DNA of 32,000 nt, taken from assembly GCF_003945235.1 (NCBI RefSeq), contig NZ_RSDW01000001.1, positions 630,001 through 662,000 on the forward strand, read 5' to 3'. The notes under the pieces were generated by a model. The model was not told the origin of the DNA, did not search any database, and saw nothing but the letters and a program-made list of their open reading frames with translations. Of this stretch, positions 4,170 to 21,336 are shown one piece after another. A program made the translations under genes and the position numbers. This DNA comes from Edaphobacter aggregans. Its GTDB lineage: Bacteria; Acidobacteriota; Terriglobia; Terriglobales; Acidobacteriaceae. How positions within the stretch are numbered: position 1 is the first letter of the stretch; every line of letters starts with the position of its first letter.

Positions 4170-5054
4170 TTGCATAGAAAGCAAACCGTCTGGATCGGCT
4201 TTCTCCTGCTCTGCCTCCTAAGAGCAACCGCGTGGATAATTCCCTCTAATCCGGACTCCCTACCCGCGGCGGAACAACAAGCGCTCCTGTACGGTATCGC
4301 CGGAATCGGAGCGTTCCTCTTCGCGAGACGGGGACTAACCCACCGCCTGGGAACTTCTGCCTGGGCTTCGCTGTCCATCACTAGCGTGGGCTTGCTGGGA
4401 CTGCCAGTTGTGCTGATCGGCTGGGCTCAAGGAAGCATCACGGAGACCGGAATATCCGCGTTATTCGCAGCGGTCCCCGCAGTGGTAGCAATCGGAATGG
4501 CCACGGGAACCGAGGGAGCAGGACGCAAATTCCTGACCCCGGCACTAGTCGCATTCGGAGGCGCTTTATTACTCCTGCCGGTTGATCTACCTGGATCACT
4601 CTCGGGCGACCTGAAACTGGCCGGATTGATCTTGGCGATTCTCTTGGTCGGCATCTGCAGCGTGCGAATGTTCCGACTCCTACAGTCGGTCGCCTACCTG
4701 GATGCTGTCGTGATCATCGGGCTCTCAAACGCAGTCTTCCTGATGATCTACTGCATCACAAACGGCTCGTTCCTATGGCGATGGAACCAATTGGCCCCCA
4801 TCACCTCCATCGCATCGTCAATCGACCTGATCGAAATAGCATTGCTGGTCTGGCTGCTACGAGAGCTGCCACCGATCCGCCTGTCTGCCCGCTATCTGGT
4901 GATTCCTCTCCTCACCGTGATTGAGGGATACATCGTATTGCAACCACAGATCACCGCGAGGCTAACCGTCGGAACCACCCTACTCACCGCCAGCGCCGCA
5001 TGGATACTGTTCGCCCGAATCGAAGAGAATGAGCCCGTGTTGTCACTCTCCTGA
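4170..5054 (+). CDS. Polytopic inner-membrane protein, possibly DMT/EamA-like transporter
   Basis: 294-aa ORF with about 9-10 hydrophobic segments, the size and topology of drug/metabolite transporters. TTG start preceded by AAAGGAGGGGAGG (4151-4163). The family assignment is by impression only. Confidence 0.65.
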   Translation: MHRKQTVWIGFLLLCLLRATAWIIPSNPDSLPAAEQQALLYGIAGIGAFLFARRGLTHRLGTSAWASLSITSVGLLGLPVVLIGWAQGSITETGISALFAAVPAVVAIGMATGTEGAGRKFLTPALVAFGGALLLLPVDLPGSLSGDLKLAGLILAILLVGICSVRMFRLLQSVAYLDAVVIIGLSNAVFLMIYCITNGSFLWRWNQLAPITSIASSIDLIEIALLVWLLRELPPIRLSARYLVIPLLTVIEGYIVLQPQITARLTVGTTLLTASAAWILFARIEENEPVLSLS

Positions 5055-5503
5055 TGTTTTTCTACAGGAAGTTTGGAGGTAAACTGCGAGGGATGGCTGC
5101 TTCCATGTACATCGTAGTTGAGGGTGAAGACCCCGGGTTCGACATCTTCGTAAACGGTCGCTCCCTCGCACGACACGAAGACGCACTCGAGAAGCTCGCC
5201 CTCCGCCAAGGAGTGAAGCCCCTCATCGAATTCTTCTCCGCCGACGAAAACTCGATGTCCCTTCTCATCGAAGAAGGTGCAGGCAACAAGGAGTTGATCC
5301 AGCGACTGCCACCCCCACAGTGGTATTCGCCAGACGACGGACTCATCACCGTGCAGGCGCTGGTTCGAGCCCTTGAAGATGAACCACAACAGCTCGGCTC
5401 CGAGGGCGAGCAGGTACTCTCCGAACTCCTCGAATATCGCAAGGTACTCGAAAAAACCAGATCCCGCGATCTGCGTTGGCACCTCGCCGTTAGTTGGCGA
5501 TAA
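5054..5503 (+). CDS. Hypothetical soluble acidic protein (no family recognised)
   Basis: The ATG at 5054 overlaps the stop of the upstream gene (TGATG). Alternative starts at 5093 (MAAS) and 5105 (MYIVVEG). Composition looks coding, with no TM segments. Confidence 0.55.
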   Translation: MFFYRKFGGKLRGMAASMYIVVEGEDPGFDIFVNGRSLARHEDALEKLALRQGVKPLIEFFSADENSMSLLIEEGAGNKELIQRLPPPQWYSPDDGLITVQALVRALEDEPQQLGSEGEQVLSELLEYRKVLEKTRSRDLRWHLAVSWR

Positions 5504-5530: not shown

Positions 5531-8500
5531 TTATTTGATGACCTGAAGACTCGGTTGGAGGATCTTGAAGATGCTCCCGCCTATCTCTGGAAACTGGTAG
5601 GCAAACCAAGTCAGGACTGGTATGGCTCCAAAGCTGATGACGCGGATGTAGAAATCGCGGCCGAGTTCGTTAGGCTTGGTGTCGGTGATGCGGCTGAGGA
5701 TGGCGTTGCGGTGCATCTGTGCAAAGACCCAGATGAAGCCACAGCCGAGGAAGACCATCAGAAGGGTGAAGCACCAGTCGATAAGTTGGTGGGGTTGGAA
5801 GGGGTAGGAGTTCCAGGCGATGATAGCGAATACGAAGGCCGATGAGACGAAGAGCATGAGATACCGGGTGTTGACGAGGACCGCGCGAATGAGTGCGACA
5901 TAACGAATGGTGAGGAGCTCTTCGGCCAAACGAATATGAGTGGGGTCTTCCGGTGCGTCGGGATCGGGTATGGATTTGGAGCTATCGGAACCGGGGTGCT
6001 CCCCTTCCCCCTCCTCAACGAAGCCAACGCGCCGCTCATTCCAGTAGGGGATGAGGAGGTAAGCGAGGAGATGTTCGCAGAATTTCGCATACAGCATTTC
6101 GATTCTGTAGATATAGCCAAGATCGTAGCGGTGATCCTCTTCGGGTAGATCGTCATCACCTGGAGGAGCGGCGGGGGGGTTGGGTTCAGGTTTCGGCGGC
6201 GGTCGCATGGTGATGCGCTTACGCAGTTCCGTGATCTGATCAATGAGCTCATCATAAGTATCTGAAAGGTCTTTCCAATGGGCCCCCTCGCCGATTGCTT
6301 GGGCGAGGTCAGGATTATTGATGAGTTGGCGCAGGGATTCGGTGGAACGAGCCATATCGCGCCACCGGAAATGGAGGCTGCTCTGGGAAAGCATGGTCAT
6401 CCAGCCGACATCCTTGAGGCGGGTAAAGGCAAGACGGAGAGGTGTGCGCTCGAGCGGTTCCAGAAGGCCACGACTCAGCGCACCCCAGATGAAGATCATA
6501 CGCAGCCAGCCAGTGAGCGCGACCATGATGAGTGGAAAGAAGAGCGTGGCAATGAGGAACTCGTATGCTGTGGGCCAATGTCCGGGATGTAGAAGGAAAC
6601 GTTCCAGGCTTTGAATATGACCGCAGAAGATGCAAATCGCGAACAGGCCGAGGTAGATGGCGAAGAAGATCGCGTTCAGTTTGGTAGCCGACCAGCCGGT
6701 GAATCGGCGGATCGTCTCTCGCGTGATCAGAAGACATGTGACGTTTTCTATAAGACAGGAGTCGATGGGGGTTTTACATTGCGTCAGAGCGCTGTCAGAG
6801 ACGAAGAGTGGATAGGGGCTTTTGGTCGGCACATTATCTGGAAGCCTTGGCCTGCTCATCGTGGAAAAACGGAGACGAGCGGTCTGGAAGACGGACCAGA
6901 GATACCAACTGAAGAGAAGAAGGAGGATTGGGACTACGGGAGAGACTCCGCTTGTGGGATGAAGCGAGCGGTAGCTGAAGAATGGTCCTACATAGGATGC
7001 TGTGCCGTCTACTGTCGTCCGAAGACATATCCATATCCACAAGAGAGGGACAGCGACAACCGTAATAAGTGCCACCAAATTGAAGTAGGGATAGAGGCGA
7101 GTAGTAGATTCAGGGTTGATGCCCTTCGCGCGCCCGGAATGGGGAAGGGTGCGGCTTAGGGTGGCTATAAGAGCGGCGAATCCGGAGAGTAATGTGATGG
7201 ATGCGACGGTGAGGCTAGGAGTATCTACAAAATAAAAACGGTCTGTCGAAAACAAGGGAAAGAGCATGGCAAAGAGCGGAAATGACACCACGAAAGCCAT
7301 GGAGAAGAGAACAGATGTGCCGATGTTGATGTAGACCGATCTTCGGCGAGGTTGGTCGTTCTGGCGAACGGCGAGATCGCGGGTAAAAGCTGACCAGTAT
7401 TCGGCAGACAACATGACGGTGGTGTGGCCGATGCACAGACTGGTAATGAGAGTGCAGAGGACAAACCAAAAGAGCGAGGGAGCAGAGTTGGGAGACGCTG
7501 GGGCAAGACGGGGCCTGAACTGACCGTCTGTCTGCGAACAGACCTTGAGGCTACCTTCAACGATATTGGGCAGGATAGTCCGTGTATCGCTTGCGCATGG
7601 ACTGAGAATTCCAAGGGGATAGTAACCATCCCCGCCGACGGTGGTGGCCCAGAGTGGAATCTGCATCGTGTCGTTCGCTGTGCGTTGATAACCGGCGAAG
7701 GTTGGCTTCGAGTTTGAGGTGCCGAACCAGAAGATGTAGCTTGCTGCATTGTAGGCACGCTCGGCGTGCGCATCGGAGAAAGCACGTGCGGAGCCATTGG
7801 CGTTCTCGAGATCGATCAAGGTATAGGGAGTGATGACAATAGAGCCAATGTAAGGGACGTTGTCGACGTCGCGCTCAATAAGCAGGTCGCCCCCGTTGTA
7901 GAAGACGAGTCTCGCATCGGGGCAGGCGCGATGGAGGAATTGAGCGAGAAAGATCTCGTCGAGGATATTGGAACCGGCGATAAGGATGTACTGCGTGCGG
8001 TTGCGCTGGAGTTGACGGGCGATGGCCATCAACTCGGCCTCCTGGGAGAGTGGAGTTTGGGCACTGGAGAAGTGAGGAACCGTGTCGTCGGCGTCAGAGT
8101 CCTTAAGCGAAAGGTTGAGATAGGGACTGGGGGCGGCGCTGGACTCGCCGGATGACTTTCCCCCTTGGTCGATCTGAGCGTTACGCAGTAGTGATATCTC
8201 GCGAGGAAAGCGGATCTGAATTCCGCCTTGCTTCCCACTAGCATTTGCGTCACCGAATACTGTTCCCTCCTCTACGAGAATCGCGATGCGTCGGACATCG
8301 TAACGGGATTTATTAAGAGCGTCGAAGAGTCGCGACAATTCGAAGCCTGTGTTTTCGGCGAAAGAGACATAAGTTATCTTTTGCTCACCCTTCTTCTGCG
8401 AATTGAGTTCGCTGTTTGCGATTCCAGTAGAGGTCTCGCCAGCAACAATGATTTCGGGAGGAGCGTGATCAAACTTCGCGTTTTCGAGACCTTCTCTGAG

Positions 8501-9331
8501 TGATGCCGCTGAACCGGAAGAGAACGGGCCTATGATGGCAAGTCGATTCCCTTCTCCCATGGAGAGCCTGGCTTTGTAGTCTTTCTTGAGCATCGCCTCA
8601 TACCGCAGTGCGTTGCGAAGCTGAGTTCCATTCACGCCGAGTGCGGGGGTTTCGCCAACGAGAAATAGGTAGATAACGCGGTGATAGCCGGACCAGGCTA
8701 CGTCGGATTCTCCGGCTCCAGCTTTCGGGGCGAATTTGAGAATGATGAGACCAGGCTGCTGCTCTCGTTTAAGGTCCTGCTCGCTCTCGGGTGGGATCGT
8801 GGATGAGTCTCCAGAGGATGGCGGAGCGATGCGACTCTTCCAAGGAAGCCAGTATTGGCTTTCTAGAAAGCGATTGTCGGATGCGGCCTGCATGAAGGCA
8901 TCGATGGTTCGGTCAAATTCGAGCGCAAAGTGGCTGTGGATGGGGTCGGGAACGGTTGCAATGATGGCACGGATGTCTGGCTCGTGATCGGGTTCTGGAG
9001 GGGGAATGCCCCAGTTGTCACTGGCGCAGCTGGTTTCGGGGTTGTCTGTAGATGCGGTTGCTGGAGAATCGGCTTTGACGGCGGCTTGTTTTATGGATTT
9101 AGTCGATTGTGGAGGCTTTTTAGCGGTTGGAGGTTCTTTCCATCGGGCGGCGCTCCAGTAGCTGCAGGAGGCGAGCCAGGGGCCTTCGCCGGTGACTACA
9201 GATTGAGCAGATATGGGCTGTGATTTTGAGGCACTGGAGTTTCCATCACGACTTATGGTGGCGTGGAACATGGCTCCAGCCAGAGCGGCTGCTCCGATAC
9301 CGGCGGCTCCCAGTCCTCGCTTCATCTCCAT
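5531..9331 (-). CDS. Very large (1266 aa) polytopic membrane protein with ~600-aa extracytoplasmic N-terminal domain; function unknown
   Basis: Uninterrupted 3.8-kb ORF. N-terminal anchor/signal GLGAAGIGAAALAGAMF. A long hydrophilic region with alternating beta-alpha-like pattern (LAIIGPFSSGSAASL, IIVAGETSTG, ILIAGSNILDE). At least 9 hydrophobic helices. A cytoplasmic insert with the Pro-rich stretch RPPPKPEPNPPAAPPGDDDLPEED. Confidence 0.85.
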   Translation of the reverse strand: MEMKRGLGAAGIGAAALAGAMFHATISRDGNSSASKSQPISAQSVVTGEGPWLASCSYWSAARWKEPPTAKKPPQSTKSIKQAAVKADSPATASTDNPETSCASDNWGIPPPEPDHEPDIRAIIATVPDPIHSHFALEFDRTIDAFMQAASDNRFLESQYWLPWKSRIAPPSSGDSSTIPPESEQDLKREQQPGLIILKFAPKAGAGESDVAWSGYHRVIYLFLVGETPALGVNGTQLRNALRYEAMLKKDYKARLSMGEGNRLAIIGPFSSGSAASLREGLENAKFDHAPPEIIVAGETSTGIANSELNSQKKGEQKITYVSFAENTGFELSRLFDALNKSRYDVRRIAILVEEGTVFGDANASGKQGGIQIRFPREISLLRNAQIDQGGKSSGESSAAPSPYLNLSLKDSDADDTVPHFSSAQTPLSQEAELMAIARQLQRNRTQYILIAGSNILDEIFLAQFLHRACPDARLVFYNGGDLLIERDVDNVPYIGSIVITPYTLIDLENANGSARAFSDAHAERAYNAASYIFWFGTSNSKPTFAGYQRTANDTMQIPLWATTVGGDGYYPLGILSPCASDTRTILPNIVEGSLKVCSQTDGQFRPRLAPASPNSAPSLFWFVLCTLITSLCIGHTTVMLSAEYWSAFTRDLAVRQNDQPRRRSVYINIGTSVLFSMAFVVSFPLFAMLFPLFSTDRFYFVDTPSLTVASITLLSGFAALIATLSRTLPHSGRAKGINPESTTRLYPYFNLVALITVVAVPLLWIWICLRTTVDGTASYVGPFFSYRSLHPTSGVSPVVPILLLLFSWYLWSVFQTARLRFSTMSRPRLPDNVPTKSPYPLFVSDSALTQCKTPIDSCLIENVTCLLITRETIRRFTGWSATKLNAIFFAIYLGLFAICIFCGHIQSLERFLLHPGHWPTAYEFLIATLFFPLIMVALTGWLRMIFIWGALSRGLLEPLERTPLRLAFTRLKDVGWMTMLSQSSLHFRWRDMARSTESLRQLINNPDLAQAIGEGAHWKDLSDTYDELIDQITELRKRITMRPPPKPEPNPPAAPPGDDDLPEEDHRYDLGYIYRIEMLYAKFCEHLLAYLLIPYWNERRVGFVEEGEGEHPGSDSSKSIPDPDAPEDPTHIRLAEELLTIRYVALIRAVLVNTRYLMLFVSSAFVFAIIAWNSYPFQPHQLIDWCFTLLMVFLGCGFIWVFAQMHRNAILSRITDTKPNELGRDFYIRVISFGAIPVLTWFAYQFPEIGGSIFKILQPSLQVIK

Positions 9332-9477
9332 TGCTGCGCTCGCATGGCTGCGTTCCTCGATGATTCTGGATACGGGCCCGACTGCGTTAGAGAGGATCTA
9401 GCCTTTGGTGGAGCGAAGTTTAGCACAGGCCCATCGTGCAGGATGAGTCTTTCGTTTGGTTCGCCTGTGGTGCAGGG

Positions 9478-10272
9478 CTACCAGGCGTGGTGGAAGCCGT
9501 CCTTTTGCGTGAGGTGGACTTCAGTCCTGAAAAGAGCGCTGAGGTGGGGGGCGGTGAGGAGTTCAGACTTGGGGCCGTCGGCCACGATGCGGCCATCCTT
9601 CATCATCAGGATGCGGTCGATCTCGGGGATGATGTCGGAGACGTGGTGGGTGATGAGGAGGATGCCGGTTCCCTGCTGGGCCAGGCGGCGTAGGAGGTCG
9701 CGGAGGTCTTGCTGGGCGGCGATGTCGAGGGCGTTGGAGGGCTCGTCGAGGAGGAGCATCTGGCGGTCTGAGCCGGTGCTGGAGGAGCCTACGAGAGCGC
9801 GGCCGATCATGATGCGGCGCTGCTGGCCGGCGGACATTTCTCCTACGGGTTTGTTGGCCAGGGGGACGGCGCCGATCTGCTCGAGGACTTCGTCGGCGCG
9901 GGTGCGCATGGCTTCGGTGACGGTGAGGTTGGGCCAGAGGGTCGAGCTTGAAAAGAAGCCGGTGAGGACGGCGTCGCGGCCGGTGGTGGTCAGGGTTTGG
10001 CGGCCGGGGAGCTCAGCGGAGACCACTCCGAGGCGTTTCTTGAGCTCGGTCAGGTCCCAGCGCTCACGTCCGAAGATGCTGACGGTTGTGTCGGGCTGGG
10101 CGATGGGGTAGCACTCGCAGGTGATGGTCTTGATGAGGGTCGACTTGCCGCAGCCGTTGGGGCCGAGGATTGCAATATGCTCGCCGGCGTTGACTGAGAG
10201 GTTGATGTCGTGGAGGACGATGTTTTCGCCGCGAGCTACGTTTACATGGGCCAGGTGCAGGAAGGGTGTCAT
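9478..10272 (-). CDS. Stand-alone ABC-transporter ATP-binding protein (ModF/YlmA-like)
   Basis: Walker A GPNGCGKST, signature MSAGQQRR, Walker B LLLLDEPSNALD, H-loop ITHH. I prefer the start at ATG 10272 (MTPFLHLAHVNV), preceded by AAGGTGA. The ORF is also open in frame from TTG 10383. Confidence 0.9.
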   Translation of the reverse strand: MTPFLHLAHVNVARGENIVLHDINLSVNAGEHIAILGPNGCGKSTLIKTITCECYPIAQPDTTVSIFGRERWDLTELKKRLGVVSAELPGRQTLTTTGRDAVLTGFFSSSTLWPNLTVTEAMRTRADEVLEQIGAVPLANKPVGEMSAGQQRRIMIGRALVGSSSTGSDRQMLLLDEPSNALDIAAQQDLRDLLRRLAQQGTGILLITHHVSDIIPEIDRILMMKDGRIVADGPKSELLTAPHLSALFRTEVHLTQKDGFHHAW

Positions 10273-10370
10273 GCTCACCTTAGAATACTGTTCCTCGTGG
10301 CGACTGCGGATCTTCAGGCTGTGTTGTAAATTAGCAGACTTCAATGGACTCCCAAGGGGTACATTTTCGC

Positions 10371-10680
10371 GCAAAGTATTCAATATAAAAGGTTTGGCTT
10401 TGGACTTCCGTTTACTGTGATACGGAAAGTCTCTGGATTCAGGGGTTTGATGAATATGGCAGACGCAAAGTATTGATTTAATGATCCCTAGCGGGTAAGT
10501 CTCCTTTTGGATTTGAAATTAAAGAGAAAGCCCCGGTGGTTGGCCGGGGCTTTTATCTCTATATCTAGTATAGCGAATTGGGTGGAATTACTATGCACGC
10601 GAATCTTCGTGATTGGTGCGGCGATTTGCTATTTGGGGGCTTGACAGGTTTTGCTGTGGATAAATTTTCGGGGTTGGGGA
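10371..10680 (-). repeat. Copy B of the conserved non-coding leader module, upstream of the ABC ATPase gene
   Basis: The reverse complement is colinear with 3943-4140, with two extra segments of about 40 and 80 nt. It contains CGCAAAGTATT twice on the + strand (10370-10380 and 10464-10474). Confidence 0.6.
10515..10553 (-). terminator. Orphan terminator hairpin, - strand reading (possibly bidirectional)
   Basis: On the - strand: AAAGCCCCGG, 7-nt loop, CCGGGGCTTT, then CTCTTTAATTT. No - strand gene lies upstream of it. On the + strand the hairpin is followed by TTTTAT. Confidence 0.6.
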
Positions 10681-12493: not shown

Positions 12494-13699
12494 CTACTCT
12501 ACGGCTTGCTTTGCGTTGTAGCCGTCGCGGGCGATGACGGAGTACTTGAGGGGCTTGTGCTTCTCGTCCTGCATCTGGAGGGGGTGGCCTTCGTTGTCGA
12601 CCAGGAGCACTTTGATCTTGCGGTAGGAGCCGTCGTTCTTGTTGTTGGTGGGGCGGTAGGTGAGGACGTACTGGTTGCGGATGGAGTCGTTGATAGTGCC
12701 GAAGACGTCGGGGAGCGCACCCTGGAAGACGGGTTTGAAGCTCATGCCTCCGGTCATGCGGGCGAAGGTTTGCATCTGGTTGTCCGCCTGGAGGTAGTTG
12801 AGGTCACGGATGGCGCCGCCCATGCCGCCGTGGCCTTCGGTCATCTCGCGGACCATGCCGCCGGTGCTGATGGTGAAGATGGTGACGTTGGGAGTGGCCT
12901 TGATCTTGGCGAGGATCTTGTCGAGGGTGATCTTGGAGAAGGTGTCGCGACCGGTGCCGATGAGGATGATGTACTTGCGGCCTTCGATGCGGCTGGTGCG
13001 GTCGAGTGTCTCGTAGAGGGCGTCGAACAGGTTGGTGTCGGAGAAGCCAGGGATGATTAGCGATCCGAGGGCGCTGCCGATGACGTTTTTGTCGTTGGTG
13101 AAGTCGGTGAGGATGTGGGTGCGGAGGTCGTAGGTGACGACGGCGACGTAGTCGTCTTTGCGCAGAGTGTTGAAGAACGTGAAGGAGGCGTTCTGCATGT
13201 CGTTAATGAAGTAGTAGCTGTTGGCCGCGAACTCGAGCAGCATGACGGCTGTGATGGGGGTCTGGGCCATGTGAACGCTGGTGACGGTCTGGGGAACGCC
13301 GTCTTCGAGGACGAGGAAGTTGGGGGCTTTGAGGCCGGGGACGAACTGGTGGGTCTTGTCGAGGATGACGTTAACGTCGAGGTTGACGATGGGGACGTCG
13401 ACGCGGAGGGAGTAGGTTTCGTTATTGGGGTTCTTGACCTTGGGCTCGGCGGGAGCGGCGGGGGGTGGGGGCTCGTCGGCCTCTTTCTTTTTCTTCAGGA
13501 CGATGGTTCCGGAGTCGGTTTCGGGCCCAGCGGAGTCGGAGGGTTGGTCGGGCTTCTGCTGCTGAGCCGGGGGCTGCGTCGCGGGAGTGGTCTGACCGTG
13601 AGCAGAGGGCAGGGCGATCAGGGACGCGAGAATTAGCAGGAAAAGTGCCGAGGCCGGCTTGCGGGAGGCGCTGAATCGACGGGAACGGTGAGTCATCAT
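12494..13699 (-). CDS. VWFA-related acidobacterial domain protein (von Willebrand factor A fold), secreted
   Basis: Signal peptide, then a Pro/Gln-rich linker, then YSLRVDVPIVNLDVNVILDK...FLVLEDGVPQTV and a VWA-like core, as in the acidobacterial VWFA family (TIGR03436-type). Confidence 0.85.
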   Translation of the reverse strand: MMTHRSRRFSASRKPASALFLLILASLIALPSAHGQTTPATQPPAQQQKPDQPSDSAGPETDSGTIVLKKKKEADEPPPPAAPAEPKVKNPNNETYSLRVDVPIVNLDVNVILDKTHQFVPGLKAPNFLVLEDGVPQTVTSVHMAQTPITAVMLLEFAANSYYFINDMQNASFTFFNTLRKDDYVAVVTYDLRTHILTDFTNDKNVIGSALGSLIIPGFSDTNLFDALYETLDRTSRIEGRKYIILIGTGRDTFSKITLDKILAKIKATPNVTIFTISTGGMVREMTEGHGGMGGAIRDLNYLQADNQMQTFARMTGGMSFKPVFQGALPDVFGTINDSIRNQYVLTYRPTNNKNDGSYRKIKVLLVDNEGHPLQMQDEKHKPLKYSVIARDGYNAKQAVE

Positions 13700-19157: not shown

Positions 19158-20408
19158 ATGCGATTTGAACTGTTTATTGCGGCGCGGTATCTGCGGGCCA
19201 AGCGGCGGCAGGCGGTGGTGGGGGTAATTACCGCGATCTCCGTGATCGGGGTGGCGGCTGGCGTGGCTGCGCTGATTATTGCGCTGGCGATTACGAATGG
19301 GATGCGGCGGGATTTGCAGGAGCGGCTGGTGGGGTCGACCGCGCACGTGGTGCTGATGCGGGTGGCGGCGGATGGGATGCGAGATTGGCGGCCTCTGCTG
19401 GAACGGCTGCGGAAGGTGCCGCATGTGACGGCGGCGGCTCCGGGGCTTTATGGGCAGGTGTTGATCTCGCGGGGGGCGAGGAGTGGTGGGGCGTTGATCA
19501 AGGGGATAATCCCTGCGGATGAGAAGACGGTGGGGGATTTGCTGCAGGCGACTAAGGAGGGGTCGGCGGATGCCCTAGCGAGCCAGCCAGTCAGCGAGGC
19601 AGCGGGGCAACGGGCTGTGCCTCCGATTGTGATTGGGGGTGATCTGGCGGAGACGCTTGGGGCGAGGGTGGGGGATACGGTGCTGGTGACTAGTCCGCAG
19701 GGTGAGTTGACTCCGCTGGGATTGGTGCCTCGGTATCAGCGGTTCACTGTGGTGGGGATCTTTAAGTCGGGGTTTTATCAGTATGACTCGAGCTATGCGT
19801 TTACTCGGCTGGCGGATGCTCAGCGACTGTTTAGCGAGCCGGATCTGATCTCGGTGATCAGCTTCAAGGTAGATGATCTTTATCGCGCCGATGTGGTTGG
19901 GCAGGCGATTGAGGCTGAGGCGGGTAAGGGATTTCAGACGACAAACTGGATGGAGCAGAATCGCGAACTGTTCCGAGCGTTGAAGCTGGAGCAGGTGGTG
20001 ACGTTTATTGTGCTGGCGCTGATTGTTTGCGTCGCCGCGCTGAATATTCTGATTGCGCTGACCATGATGGTGATGGAGAAGACTCGTGATATTGCCGTAC
20101 TGATGAGCTTTGGGGTGCGGGCGGAGCAGGTGCGGCGGATTTTTCTGCTGCAGGGTTTGTTGATCTCGATTATTGGTACGGTGCTGGGGTTGATTGTGGG
20201 GTATTCACTGAGCTGGGCAGGTGGGCACTACCGGTTTATTCATCTGGATGCGGCGGTTTATTCGATTGATTATCTGCCGTTTGCGCCGCGAGTTTTAGAT
20301 GCCGTGATTGTGGCGGCTGTGTCGCTGGGGGTTAGTTTAGTGGCTACGATTTATCCGAGTGGAAGTGCGGCGAAGGTGCTACCTGCGGAGGCCTTGCGGT
20401 ATGAATAA
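19158..20408 (+). CDS. lolE: Lipoprotein-releasing system permease, LolC/LolE family (FtsX-type)
   Basis: MRFELFIAARYLRAKRRQAVVGVITAISVIGVAAGVAALI is the canonical LolC/E N-terminus. The ORF has a periplasmic MacB-like domain and a C-terminal FtsX 3-TM bundle. Confidence 0.9.
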   Translation: MRFELFIAARYLRAKRRQAVVGVITAISVIGVAAGVAALIIALAITNGMRRDLQERLVGSTAHVVLMRVAADGMRDWRPLLERLRKVPHVTAAAPGLYGQVLISRGARSGGALIKGIIPADEKTVGDLLQATKEGSADALASQPVSEAAGQRAVPPIVIGGDLAETLGARVGDTVLVTSPQGELTPLGLVPRYQRFTVVGIFKSGFYQYDSSYAFTRLADAQRLFSEPDLISVISFKVDDLYRADVVGQAIEAEAGKGFQTTNWMEQNRELFRALKLEQVVTFIVLALIVCVAALNILIALTMMVMEKTRDIAVLMSFGVRAEQVRRIFLLQGLLISIIGTVLGLIVGYSLSWAGGHYRFIHLDAAVYSIDYLPFAPRVLDAVIVAAVSLGVSLVATIYPSGSAAKVLPAEALRYE

Positions 20409-21336
20409 ACCAATTTTTGCCACGATTGTGTTCGTTCTGATGGTTGTATCTGTCCTTGGTCAAGGGCCAAACGAAGGGTACGTGATGGAAAGTGAAGCCA
20501 CCCGCCACCTTCTTGCACATATGGATCCTATCTACCCTGCCATCGCTAAAGCAGCCCATGTGCAGGGAAATGTTCTGCTACACGCCGACGTGACCGAGCA
20601 TGGAACTGTAACGAAGGTTGAGGTGATTGGTGGTCCGCCGATGCTGCGGCAGTCTGCTATAGACGCTGTCAAGCATTGGACTTACAGTCCATTTGAAGTC
20701 AATGGCGTCGCTAGCAAAGTTCAGATCGTCGTATCAGTTGCATTCTCGCTCGGTATTCCGCCAGCCACCGAAAAAAGCGACGACGCGATAGGTCAGGCAT
20801 ATTTTCCGAAGGCAACAGAGTGTCGGGCTGCAAATGCGTCCGGGCGCTGGAGCGAGGCTGTGAAATCTTGCGGAGACCTAACCCTCATTGCAGATCGTTT
20901 TCCCGATCCTTCGATGCGAGCCAACGAGATCCGTGGAGCTCATCAGGAGTACGGCGAGGCGCTGGCATTTTCAGGCGATCTTACAACGGCCTTGGCGGAG
21001 TTTCATCGAATAACCGAACTTGCGGAAAAGTCTTTGACGTCGAAAGACGCTGAGTACGGAACGGCCTATTACTGGCAGGCGTTTGCTGAACACGCGTCAA
21101 AGATGCCTGTCGAAGCGGACCACGACTATAACGTCGCCGAAGATAGTTATCGCAAGGCTATGGTGAACCTTCCCGATATGAAACAAATCTATGGGCGTTA
21201 CCTCGCCCATACCCTTGTCTATCACTCAGTCTTGGCGAAGCAGACTGGACGCGATGAAGTTGCCGCGAAGATGCAAGCGGAAGCGCTGCAGCTTGATCCC
21301 AAAGCATTGGATGGACTCGGGGGGAAGAAATCATGA
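20401..21336 (+). CDS. TonB C-terminal-domain protein with TPR-like helical C-terminal half
   Basis: Start at ATG 20401 (MNKPIFATIVFVLMVV), overlapping the lolE stop by 8 nt. YPAIAKAAHVQGNVLLHADVTEHGTVTKVEVIGGPPMLRQSAIDAVKHWTYSPF matches the TonB_C pattern. Confidence 0.7.
   Translation: MNKPIFATIVFVLMVVSVLGQGPNEGYVMESEATRHLLAHMDPIYPAIAKAAHVQGNVLLHADVTEHGTVTKVEVIGGPPMLRQSAIDAVKHWTYSPFEVNGVASKVQIVVSVAFSLGIPPATEKSDDAIGQAYFPKATECRAANASGRWSEAVKSCGDLTLIADRFPDPSMRANEIRGAHQEYGEALAFSGDLTTALAEFHRITELAEKSLTSKDAEYGTAYYWQAFAEHASKMPVEADHDYNVAEDSYRKAMVNLPDMKQIYGRYLAHTLVYHSVLAKQTGRDEVAAKMQAEALQLDPKALDGLGGKKS

Follow-up and report, generated by a model that had tools for sequence, protein, structure and literature searches.

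In a 32,000-nt stretch of the Edaphobacter aggregans genome (hereafter the window), a gene for an ATP-binding cassette (ABC) ATPase of 264 amino acids is followed on the same strand by a gene for a 1266-aa membrane protein, whose product is 100% identical to the hypothetical protein EDE15_0552. Here we report that the two genes are most probably independent of each other, their adjacency in the window appearing to be a genome arrangement and not a partnership, and that the large protein stands alone and belongs to a large protein family that has neither a description nor a name. Structure prediction indicates that its ectodomain very probably adopts the type-1 periplasmic-binding-protein (Venus flytrap) fold. 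The best overall explanation, which we put forward tentatively, is that of two independent genes, with the large protein acting as a stand-alone ligand-sensing transmembrane receptor or transducer.

Translation of the open reading frames (ORFs) confirmed the arrangement described in an initial annotation of the window, namely a 264-aa ATPase, a 146-nt gap and a 1266-aa protein. The 264-aa length was accepted for the ATPase because the ATG at 10272 fits the lengths of its homologs (258–270 aa). For the large gene, the start that is conserved in the family is Met3 (ATG at 9325). The locus comprises the following features:

5448..5473, minus strand: terminator-like hairpin and T-run, 58 nt past the large-gene stop (a pattern match only)
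5531..9331, minus strand: large ORF, 1266 aa
9322..9345, minus strand: possible 7-codon upstream ORF (MRAQQWR*), with a GAGGA Shine–Dalgarno sequence 8 nt upstream
9332..9477, minus strand: intergenic gap of 146 nt, from the ATPase stop to the large-ORF start
9359..9385, minus strand: leader box GCAGTCGGGCCCGTATCCAGAATCATC, conserved, within the presumed 5′ untranslated region
9406..9427, minus strand: extended −10-like box TGTGCTAAACTTCGCTCCACCA (TGc + TAAACT), conserved and aligned upstream of large-gene homologs
9478..10272, minus strand: ABC ATPase, 264 aa (ORF 9478..10383, ATG at 10272)

We compared the window with 74 related loci, 71 from a pattern scan with one genome per species and three from exact look-ups, making 75 in all; counts of an upstream ATPase cover the 68 loci, window included, that have at least 1.3 kb of upstream sequence. 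A tblastn search with the window ATPase placed the ATPase upstream of the large gene in 6 of these 68 loci, in two lineages. Besides the window, it lies directly upstream only in L004, L005, L006 and L072, whose large proteins are 77–85% identical to that of the window, and in L015, whose large protein is 45% identical. The L015 ATPase, however, is 84% identical to the window ATPase, and judging by these identities the evolutionary rates of the two proteins are decoupled. Clustering of the ORFs within 6 kb revealed no conserved neighbour of the large gene, the biggest cluster covering 8 of the 75 loci at variable position and strand. A relative from Ca. Angelobacter, 29% identical and alignable over the whole length, has no ATPase beside it. 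Five loci in other genomes that carry orthologs of the ATPase (83–89% identity) have no adjoining homolog of the large gene. At four of these five (L075, L076, L077 and L082), the ATPase ends a block that begins with AIM24 and continues with either PadR and a duplicated FtsX permease or MauE, and that is convergent with GNAT–argH; argG is clearly also part of the block at L076 and L082, and L081 retains the upstream half only. In L006 and L015, the ATPase and GNAT–argH converge with the large gene exactly between them, so that the large gene occupies this gap only occasionally. A neighbour-joining tree assigns the window clade and L015 to different paralog clades. As read from these sequences, the adjacency either is ancestral in a narrow Edaphobacter-level group and was repeatedly lost, or arose twice; on either origin, the pairing is not a property of the family. 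The initial annotation had treated the ATPase and the large protein as one ABC-type system and held that this pairing would fall if the two genes were not conserved neighbours. They are not: the adjacency is confined to 6 of the 68 loci, the orthologs of the ATPase occur elsewhere without the large gene, and the one-system proposal is not supported.

Two side observations concern the loci just described. L004 and L005 come from the same metagenome-assembled genome (CAVSOH01), in which the ATPase and large-gene pair occurs twice, on two contigs, with about 95% and about 85% identity to the window; this could reflect duplication or strain heterogeneity in the bin. At three of the five ortholog loci (L076, 2891–6798; L081, 1905–5798; L082, 1893–5798), the ATPase is divergent from PadR and the permease. 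This permease is an 881-aa protein with a duplicated MacB_PCD/FtsX arrangement and no ATPase of its own, which we take to resemble the acidobacterial duplicated orphan permeases (ADOP) and which the conserved ATPase might conceivably serve.

The region ahead of the large gene has features of its own, from which we infer that transcription of the gene starts at a separate extended −10 promoter and includes a separate leader. The −10-like box occurs upstream of homologs that have the ATPase (L004, L006 and L015) and also of homologs that do not (L007, L008, L009, L010, L012, L013, L014, L026, L053, L065 and L073). The leader box lies about 45–65 nt ahead of the start codon in many loci, including L007–L010, L013, L026, L053 and L073. 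Both the −10-like box (TGTGCTAAACT...) and the leader box (TCGGGCCCGTATCC..GAATCATC) recur despite quite different upstream genes. The TGA stop of the possible upstream ORF overlaps the conserved ATG at 9325 (ATGA), and similar 6–7-codon ORFs that have a Shine–Dalgarno sequence of their own and end in ATGA are found in L004, L005, L006, L009, L010, L053 and L063 and are absent in other loci; the upstream region with its short ORF may serve as a regulatory leader or a translational-coupling device. An Rfam search at gathering thresholds gave no match over the whole window, which places the leader outside the known RNA families.

The sequence marks the 264-aa protein as a solitary ABC ATPase that evolves slowly, and the neighbourhoods described above give it no specific partnership with the large gene. 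It matches Pfam ABC_tran (E = 3e-24), and its translation has an intact Walker A (GPNGCGKS), signature (MSAGQ), Walker B (LLLDEP) and H-loop (THH). Among its 120 best homologs listed, every one is at least 81% identical and 253–296 aa long. The best NCBIfam match is NF010068 (heme importer ATPase, HmuV-like), at 146 bits against a cut-off of 261, followed by NF008186 (ModF), at 121 bits against an equivalog cut-off of 459; the protein thus reaches no NCBIfam equivalog cut-off and its score does not place it in ModF. A close homolog (P0180) bears the JGI name ‘ABC-type molybdenum transport system ATPase component / photorepair protein PhrA’. The protein resembles the COG1119-type solitary ABC ATPases (ModF/PhrA/YlmA-like) in being a single nucleotide-binding domain of about 260 aa without a permease in its operon. 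It differs from them in that its ModF score lies far under the cut-off and its top NCBIfam profile is the heme importer ATPase.

Sequence searches connected the large protein to nothing outside its own family. Alone, it has no match in Pfam, NCBIfam or PADLOC; phmmer against PDB sequences returned nothing at E ≤ 10, and the family profile gave nothing significant against the PDB (best E = 0.5). Pfam searches on 29 family members and 8 distant members gave no match, including none to Peripla_BP_6 or ANF_receptor, and an ectodomain-only profile aimed at these two models retrieved this family only, with no Pfam domains on the matches. There is no recognisable permease, kinase or other catalytic domain in the large protein, and no transporter or enzyme domain in any family member examined.

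The family is nevertheless extensive. With a profile of the membrane domain, 2738 representatives of 50% identity clusters were matched at E ≤ 1e-3, of which 616 reach E ≤ 1e-30. Among the best 150 of the 2738 profile matches, the longer proteins are mostly 1150–1450 aa with the membrane domain at the C-terminal end. The named members, in these matches and in the other family searches, almost all belong to the Acidobacteriota, class Terriglobia (Edaphobacter, Tunturiibacter, Terriglobus, Terracidiphilus, Silvibacterium, Bryobacteraceae, Ca. Solibacter and Ca. Angelobacter). In several genomes the gene is present twice (L013 and L051, L016 and L033, L043 and L050). Short members on long contigs (for example, P0388 and P0400) were considered as true split genes and set aside, assembly frameshifts being equally likely. 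A literature search on bacterial flytrap-fused membrane proteins and on Acidobacteria with flytrap domains found nothing relevant.

Hydropathy analysis placed transmembrane (TM) helices at residues 623–641, 673–691, 707–725, 752–770, 796–814, 885–903, 925–943, 1145–1175 and 1186–1204, with a K/R-rich loop of 191 aa at residues 944–1134, and the secondary structure in AlphaFold2 (AF2) models agrees with this layout of nine clear TM helices and a C-terminal hydrophobic helical hairpin, or 9–10 helices in all. K/R counts assign the loops 642–672 (after TM1), 815–884 (after TM5) and 944–1134 (the insert), the loop after TM3 and the C terminus after TM9 to the cytoplasm, and the N-terminal domain is therefore periplasmic. 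The anatomy that the initial annotation had outlined (an anchor, an ectodomain, at least nine TM helices and a cytoplasmic insert) is thus borne out by hydropathy and AF2, the ectodomain measuring about 500 aa. From the N to the C terminus, the protein consists of the following parts:

9254..9331, minus strand: residues 1–26 (MEMKRGLGAAGIGAAALAGAMF...), a weakly hydrophobic segment, putatively a signal or anchor
9155–9190, minus strand: residues 48–59, the nearly invariant motif GEGPWLASCxYW, followed by a variable low-complexity linker to about residue 118
7532..8977, minus strand: residues ~119–600, periplasmic ectodomain with a predicted bilobed flytrap fold and a short juxtamembrane β-hairpin region
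6449..7474, minus strand: residues 620–961, first part of the membrane domain (TM1–TM7), with the conserved cytoplasmic motifs TRDL..NDQPRRR and ARLRFS..RPRLP
5942..6448, minus strand: residues 962–1130, cytoplasmic helical insert with conserved helices and variable Pro-rich/acidic linkers
5534..5941, minus strand: residues 1131–1266, TM8, TM9 and a helical hairpin at the C terminus, one of the best conserved regions of the protein

The Pro-rich stretch RPPPKPEPNPPAAPPGDDDLPEED within the insert (residues 1043–1066) is poorly conserved in family alignments. A second invariant Cys lies at residue 102, and a disulfide or tether function is possible for the N-terminal Cys motif, which at residues 48–59 lies outside the structure models described below (residues 67–1266 and 610–1266). 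We considered the invariant LASC (residues 53–56) as a lipoprotein signal and rejected this reading: because the Cys is about 30 residues beyond the hydrophobic segment, LASC is not a lipobox in a signal-peptide context.

The AF2 model of residues 67–1266, built from 91 sequences, has a mean predicted local distance difference test score (pLDDT) of 82.4 and a predicted template-modelling score (pTM) of 0.84, which suggests a fixed arrangement of the ectodomain and the membrane domain; the model of the membrane domain alone (residues 610–1266) has a pLDDT of 88.9 and a pTM of 0.89. The ectodomain alternates strand and helix. When the whole model was compared with the PDB by Foldseek, the sweet-taste receptor 9opy_B ranked first (E = 4e-4). 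The ectodomain also matches the Leu/Ile/Val-type (LIV-type) solute-binding proteins 4q6b, 3h5l, 4obb and 4mlc at target-normalised template-modelling scores (TM-scores) of 0.50–0.59 (for 4q6b, E = 1.5e-3 and TM-score 0.57), as well as AmiC (1pea), the mGluR5 ectodomain, 6n4y_C and many amino-terminal domains of ionotropic glutamate receptors (iGluRs), most of these flytrap-superfamily matches having a Foldseek probability of 0.98–1.00. What the initial annotation had offered as an impression, a type-1 periplasmic-binding-protein fold, is thus matched by AF2 and Foldseek at probability 1.00 to LIV-type proteins, AmiC, mGluR5 and the sweet receptor. As modelled, the flytrap domain is recognisable by structure only, sequence profiles being blind to the relationship. 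Within it, residues 385–424 (window 8060–8179, minus strand) form a conserved loop, PYLNLSLKD..ADDTVP.FS..QTPLSQEA, that nevertheless has a pLDDT below 50 and is a candidate interaction or oligomerisation epitope.

The membrane domain, by contrast with the ectodomain, has no credible Foldseek match in the PDB (best E = 0.6, probability ≤0.28, TM-score <0.3). Its top candidates, XPR1, the KDEL receptor, NRT1.1, Na+-PPase and phenylalanine ammonia-lyase, all lie within these low values (probability ≤0.28, TM-score <0.3) and were dismissed as noise. No ABC permease, FtsX, G-protein-coupled receptor (GPCR) or pore-loop channel fold occurs among the 50 best matches listed, and hhalign found no internal repeat between the N- and C-terminal halves of the domain. 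With no permease, kinase or catalytic motif in Pfam or NCBIfam and no ABC permease in this Foldseek listing, the initial annotation was right to recognise none. TM7 and TM8 are modelled as helices of 40–44 residues that project into the cytoplasm, where they bundle with the conserved helices of the insert.

In an alignment of 100 full-length family members, the most distant of them 29% identical, eighty residues are at least 95% conserved. Those of the ectodomain are distributed over both lobes and include the 385–424 loop. The C-terminal half contains about 36 residues that are at least 95% conserved, mostly at the cytoplasmic interface or in the cytoplasmic domain and helices, and eleven of them are arginines; a conserved cluster on the cytoplasmic side includes R819, R821, R827, R944, R966, R995, R1143, R1149, R1214 and R1230. 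In the membrane cores, the conserved residues are chiefly Pro, Trp and Gly, with almost no conserved charge mid-membrane. In the periplasmic loops, FSYR(788) is invariant.

Given this architecture, we cautiously favour a receptor or transducer over a transporter or an enzyme, and the following mechanism can be proposed. The periplasmic flytrap (LIVBP-like) ectodomain would capture a small periplasmic ligand, and closure of the clamshell would be relayed through a defined juxtamembrane connection to the 9–10-helix membrane domain, whose fold is unmatched. The signal would then arrive at the Arg-rich cytoplasmic face and the helical bundle formed by the TM7/TM8 extensions and the insert. This cytoplasmic surface would be the output, binding or releasing a soluble partner or an anionic ligand encoded elsewhere.

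Comparisons with known systems place the protein near several of them, and we infer from the models that it works like flytrap-coupled receptors or transporters with fused solute-binding domains while being a member of neither group. It shares the bilobed α/β flytrap with cluster-B (LIVBP-like) solute-binding proteins and the amide sensor AmiC (4q6b, 3h5l, 4obb and 1pea; Foldseek probability 1.00, target-normalised TM-score 0.46–0.59). Unlike these proteins, it has no detectable profile similarity to Peripla_BP_6 or ANF_receptor in any member, its flytrap is covalently fused to a polytopic membrane domain, and its ectodomain includes a 40-residue loop that is conserved yet modelled poorly, as well as an N-terminal motif with a Cys; unlike the genes of cluster-B ABC importers, the large gene has no LivHM-type permease and no conserved ATPase nearby. 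As in class C GPCRs (mGluR5 and TAS1R) and iGluRs, an N-terminal extracytoplasmic flytrap is followed by a polytopic membrane domain. The membrane domain is, however, neither a seven-TM GPCR fold nor a pore-loop channel, the protein is bacterial and has 9–10 helices with a 190-aa cytoplasmic helical insert, and nothing except the flytrap fold points to a shared ancestry. Type VII ABC systems (MacB, LolCDE and FtsEX) and the ABC importers with a fused substrate-binding domain (OpuA and GlnPQ) resemble the window in combining a large periplasmic domain on a membrane protein with an adjoining ABC ATPase. In contrast to the type VII systems, the large protein has no match to PF02687 (FtsX) or PF12704 (MacB_PCD) and no ABC permease fold. 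MacB and FtsX proteins have a four-helix FtsX domain with MacB_PCD between TM1 and TM2, whereas the periplasmic domain here lies ahead of TM1 and is followed by 9–10 helices. The ATPase, for its part, is nearest to HmuV/FecE/ModF-type profiles and not to the MacB/LolD type, and, unlike in the type VII systems and OpuA/GlnPQ, the neighbourhood of the large gene and the ATPase is not conserved.

Three other explanations were weighed against a stand-alone receptor. That the two genes encode an atypical ABC system, either a transporter with a fused binding domain or a mechanotransducer like MacB, FtsEX or LolCDE, with an ATPase dimer docked on the cytoplasmic loops, is very improbable. The shared strand, the short gap free of a terminator-like hairpin, the recurrence of the adjacency in L015, in another paralog clade than that of the window, and the absence of a same-strand permease gene adjoining the ATPase at the loci examined would all suit such a system, and the long cytoplasmic extensions of TM7 and TM8 superficially recall the intracellular domains of ABC exporters. 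Yet 62 of the 68 loci have no ATPase, five ATPase-ortholog loci (four with common flanking genes) have no large gene, a conserved promoter-like box and leader belong to the large gene itself, and distant family members retain the full architecture with no ATPase nearby. Neither the query nor 37 relatives contain an FtsX, MacB_PCD, BPD_transp, FecCD, ABC2 or ABC_membrane domain, and an ABC permease is absent from the 50 best Foldseek matches listed. The neighbourhood analysis thus largely refutes the proposal as far as gene order can tell. Of the options raised in the initial annotation (a transporter, a receptor or a mechanotransducing machine), the receptor alternative survives, and the ABC machine finds no support in a permease or an FtsX/MacB fold.

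A stand-alone transporter or ligand-gated channel, in which the flytrap hands a solute to, or gates, the 9–10-helix conduit, driven by a gradient without ATP, is a better candidate that we still consider unlikely; its logic would resemble that of secondary transporters fused to solute-binding proteins or that of iGluRs. The flytrap fold is nearest to amino-acid and amide solute-binding proteins, the membrane domain and C-terminal hairpin are among the best conserved parts, members have no separate output domain, and two or more paralogs per genome would suit different substrates. These points are set against a membrane interior with hardly any conserved charged or polar residue, the lack in hhalign of the internal repeat common in secondary transporters, the lack of a structural match (XPR1, NRT1.1 and others at probability ≤0.25 and TM-score <0.2) and the concentration of conservation at the cytoplasmic face. 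We regard as improbable a role in envelope biogenesis (lipid-linked glycan or exopolysaccharide), with the Arg-rich interface binding a lipid-pyrophosphate or anionic lipid and the periplasmic domain binding a polymer. Eleven arginines at least 95% conserved at membrane interfaces and in cytoplasmic segments, the invariant FSYR(788), the near restriction of named members to class Terriglobia and a conserved, poorly modelled ectodomain loop that could contact a polymer or partner are in keeping with this role; it is opposed by the absence of a conserved neighbourhood with glycosyltransferases, Wzx/Wzy or export genes, of a structural match to GT-C, Wzy/WaaL, MurJ or SEDS folds, and of a recognisable catalytic motif.

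Several points weigh against our own reading of two independent genes with a receptor as the larger product. On the genetic side, the order of ATPase and then large gene is found in two paralog clades (the window clade and L015) and the promoter was assigned from motifs. A pattern scan found no terminator-like hairpin in the gap (9332..9477, minus strand), and for this reason read-through co-transcription from the ATPase into the large gene could occur, and some local functional link is possible. On the functional side, the case for a receptor is an architectural one, and Foldseek against the PDB is a weak test for all-helical membrane folds. In other bacterial sensor modules with several TM helices, an output domain such as a kinase or a cyclase is the norm. 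No family member has an output domain, and the effector could therefore be the membrane domain, acting as a channel, a transporter or an enzyme.

The remaining observations concern the flanks of the two genes. Convergent to the large gene, two plus-strand ORFs with an overlapping stop occupy window positions 4170–5503: one (4170–5054) encodes a 294-aa polytopic membrane protein and the other (5054–5503) a 149-aa protein, and neither has a match in Pfam, NCBIfam or PADLOC. They were considered as partners of the large gene and rejected, since none of the 74 related loci has a homolog of either. A strong terminator-like hairpin (10527–10553, minus strand), with a 10-bp stem, seven G–C pairs and then a T-rich tail, lies upstream of the start of the ATPase, in the region that separates it from a divergent GH35 gene; between this hairpin and a 401-aa ORF (12494–13699) there is no minus-strand ORF of at least 150 aa. 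About 9 kb from the solitary ATPase, a plus-strand gene (19158–20408) encodes a 416-aa MacB_PCD/FtsX permease with no adjoining ABC ATPase gene, and is followed by a gene for a TonB_C-domain protein (20359–21336).

For annotation, the apparent operon of an ATPase plus a giant membrane protein should not be recorded as an ABC system. Terriglobia Acidobacteria rank with the most abundant bacteria of soil, and a large share of their proteome has no annotation; the family reported here, which comprises 2738 clusters at 50% identity and is often present twice in a genome, is without a Pfam or NCBIfam model or any description that we could locate. More speculatively, the large protein may found a new class, in which a flytrap sensor is rigidly coupled to a 9–10-helix domain, of a fold unmatched among solved structures, with an Arg-rich cytoplasmic helical bundle as the output. 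Such a class, in our view a possibility short of an expectation, would cover either a bacterial transmembrane receptor or a ligand-gated membrane device, as a prokaryotic and probably convergent counterpart of the logic of class C GPCRs and iGluRs. If true, a flytrap sensor on an unprecedented membrane domain would be a new type of device for environmental sensing or uptake, and would offer a bacterial example for comparing the ways in which a closing flytrap is linked to a membrane domain. A class of this kind would then be widespread, and present in multiple copies, in the Terriglobia of soil.

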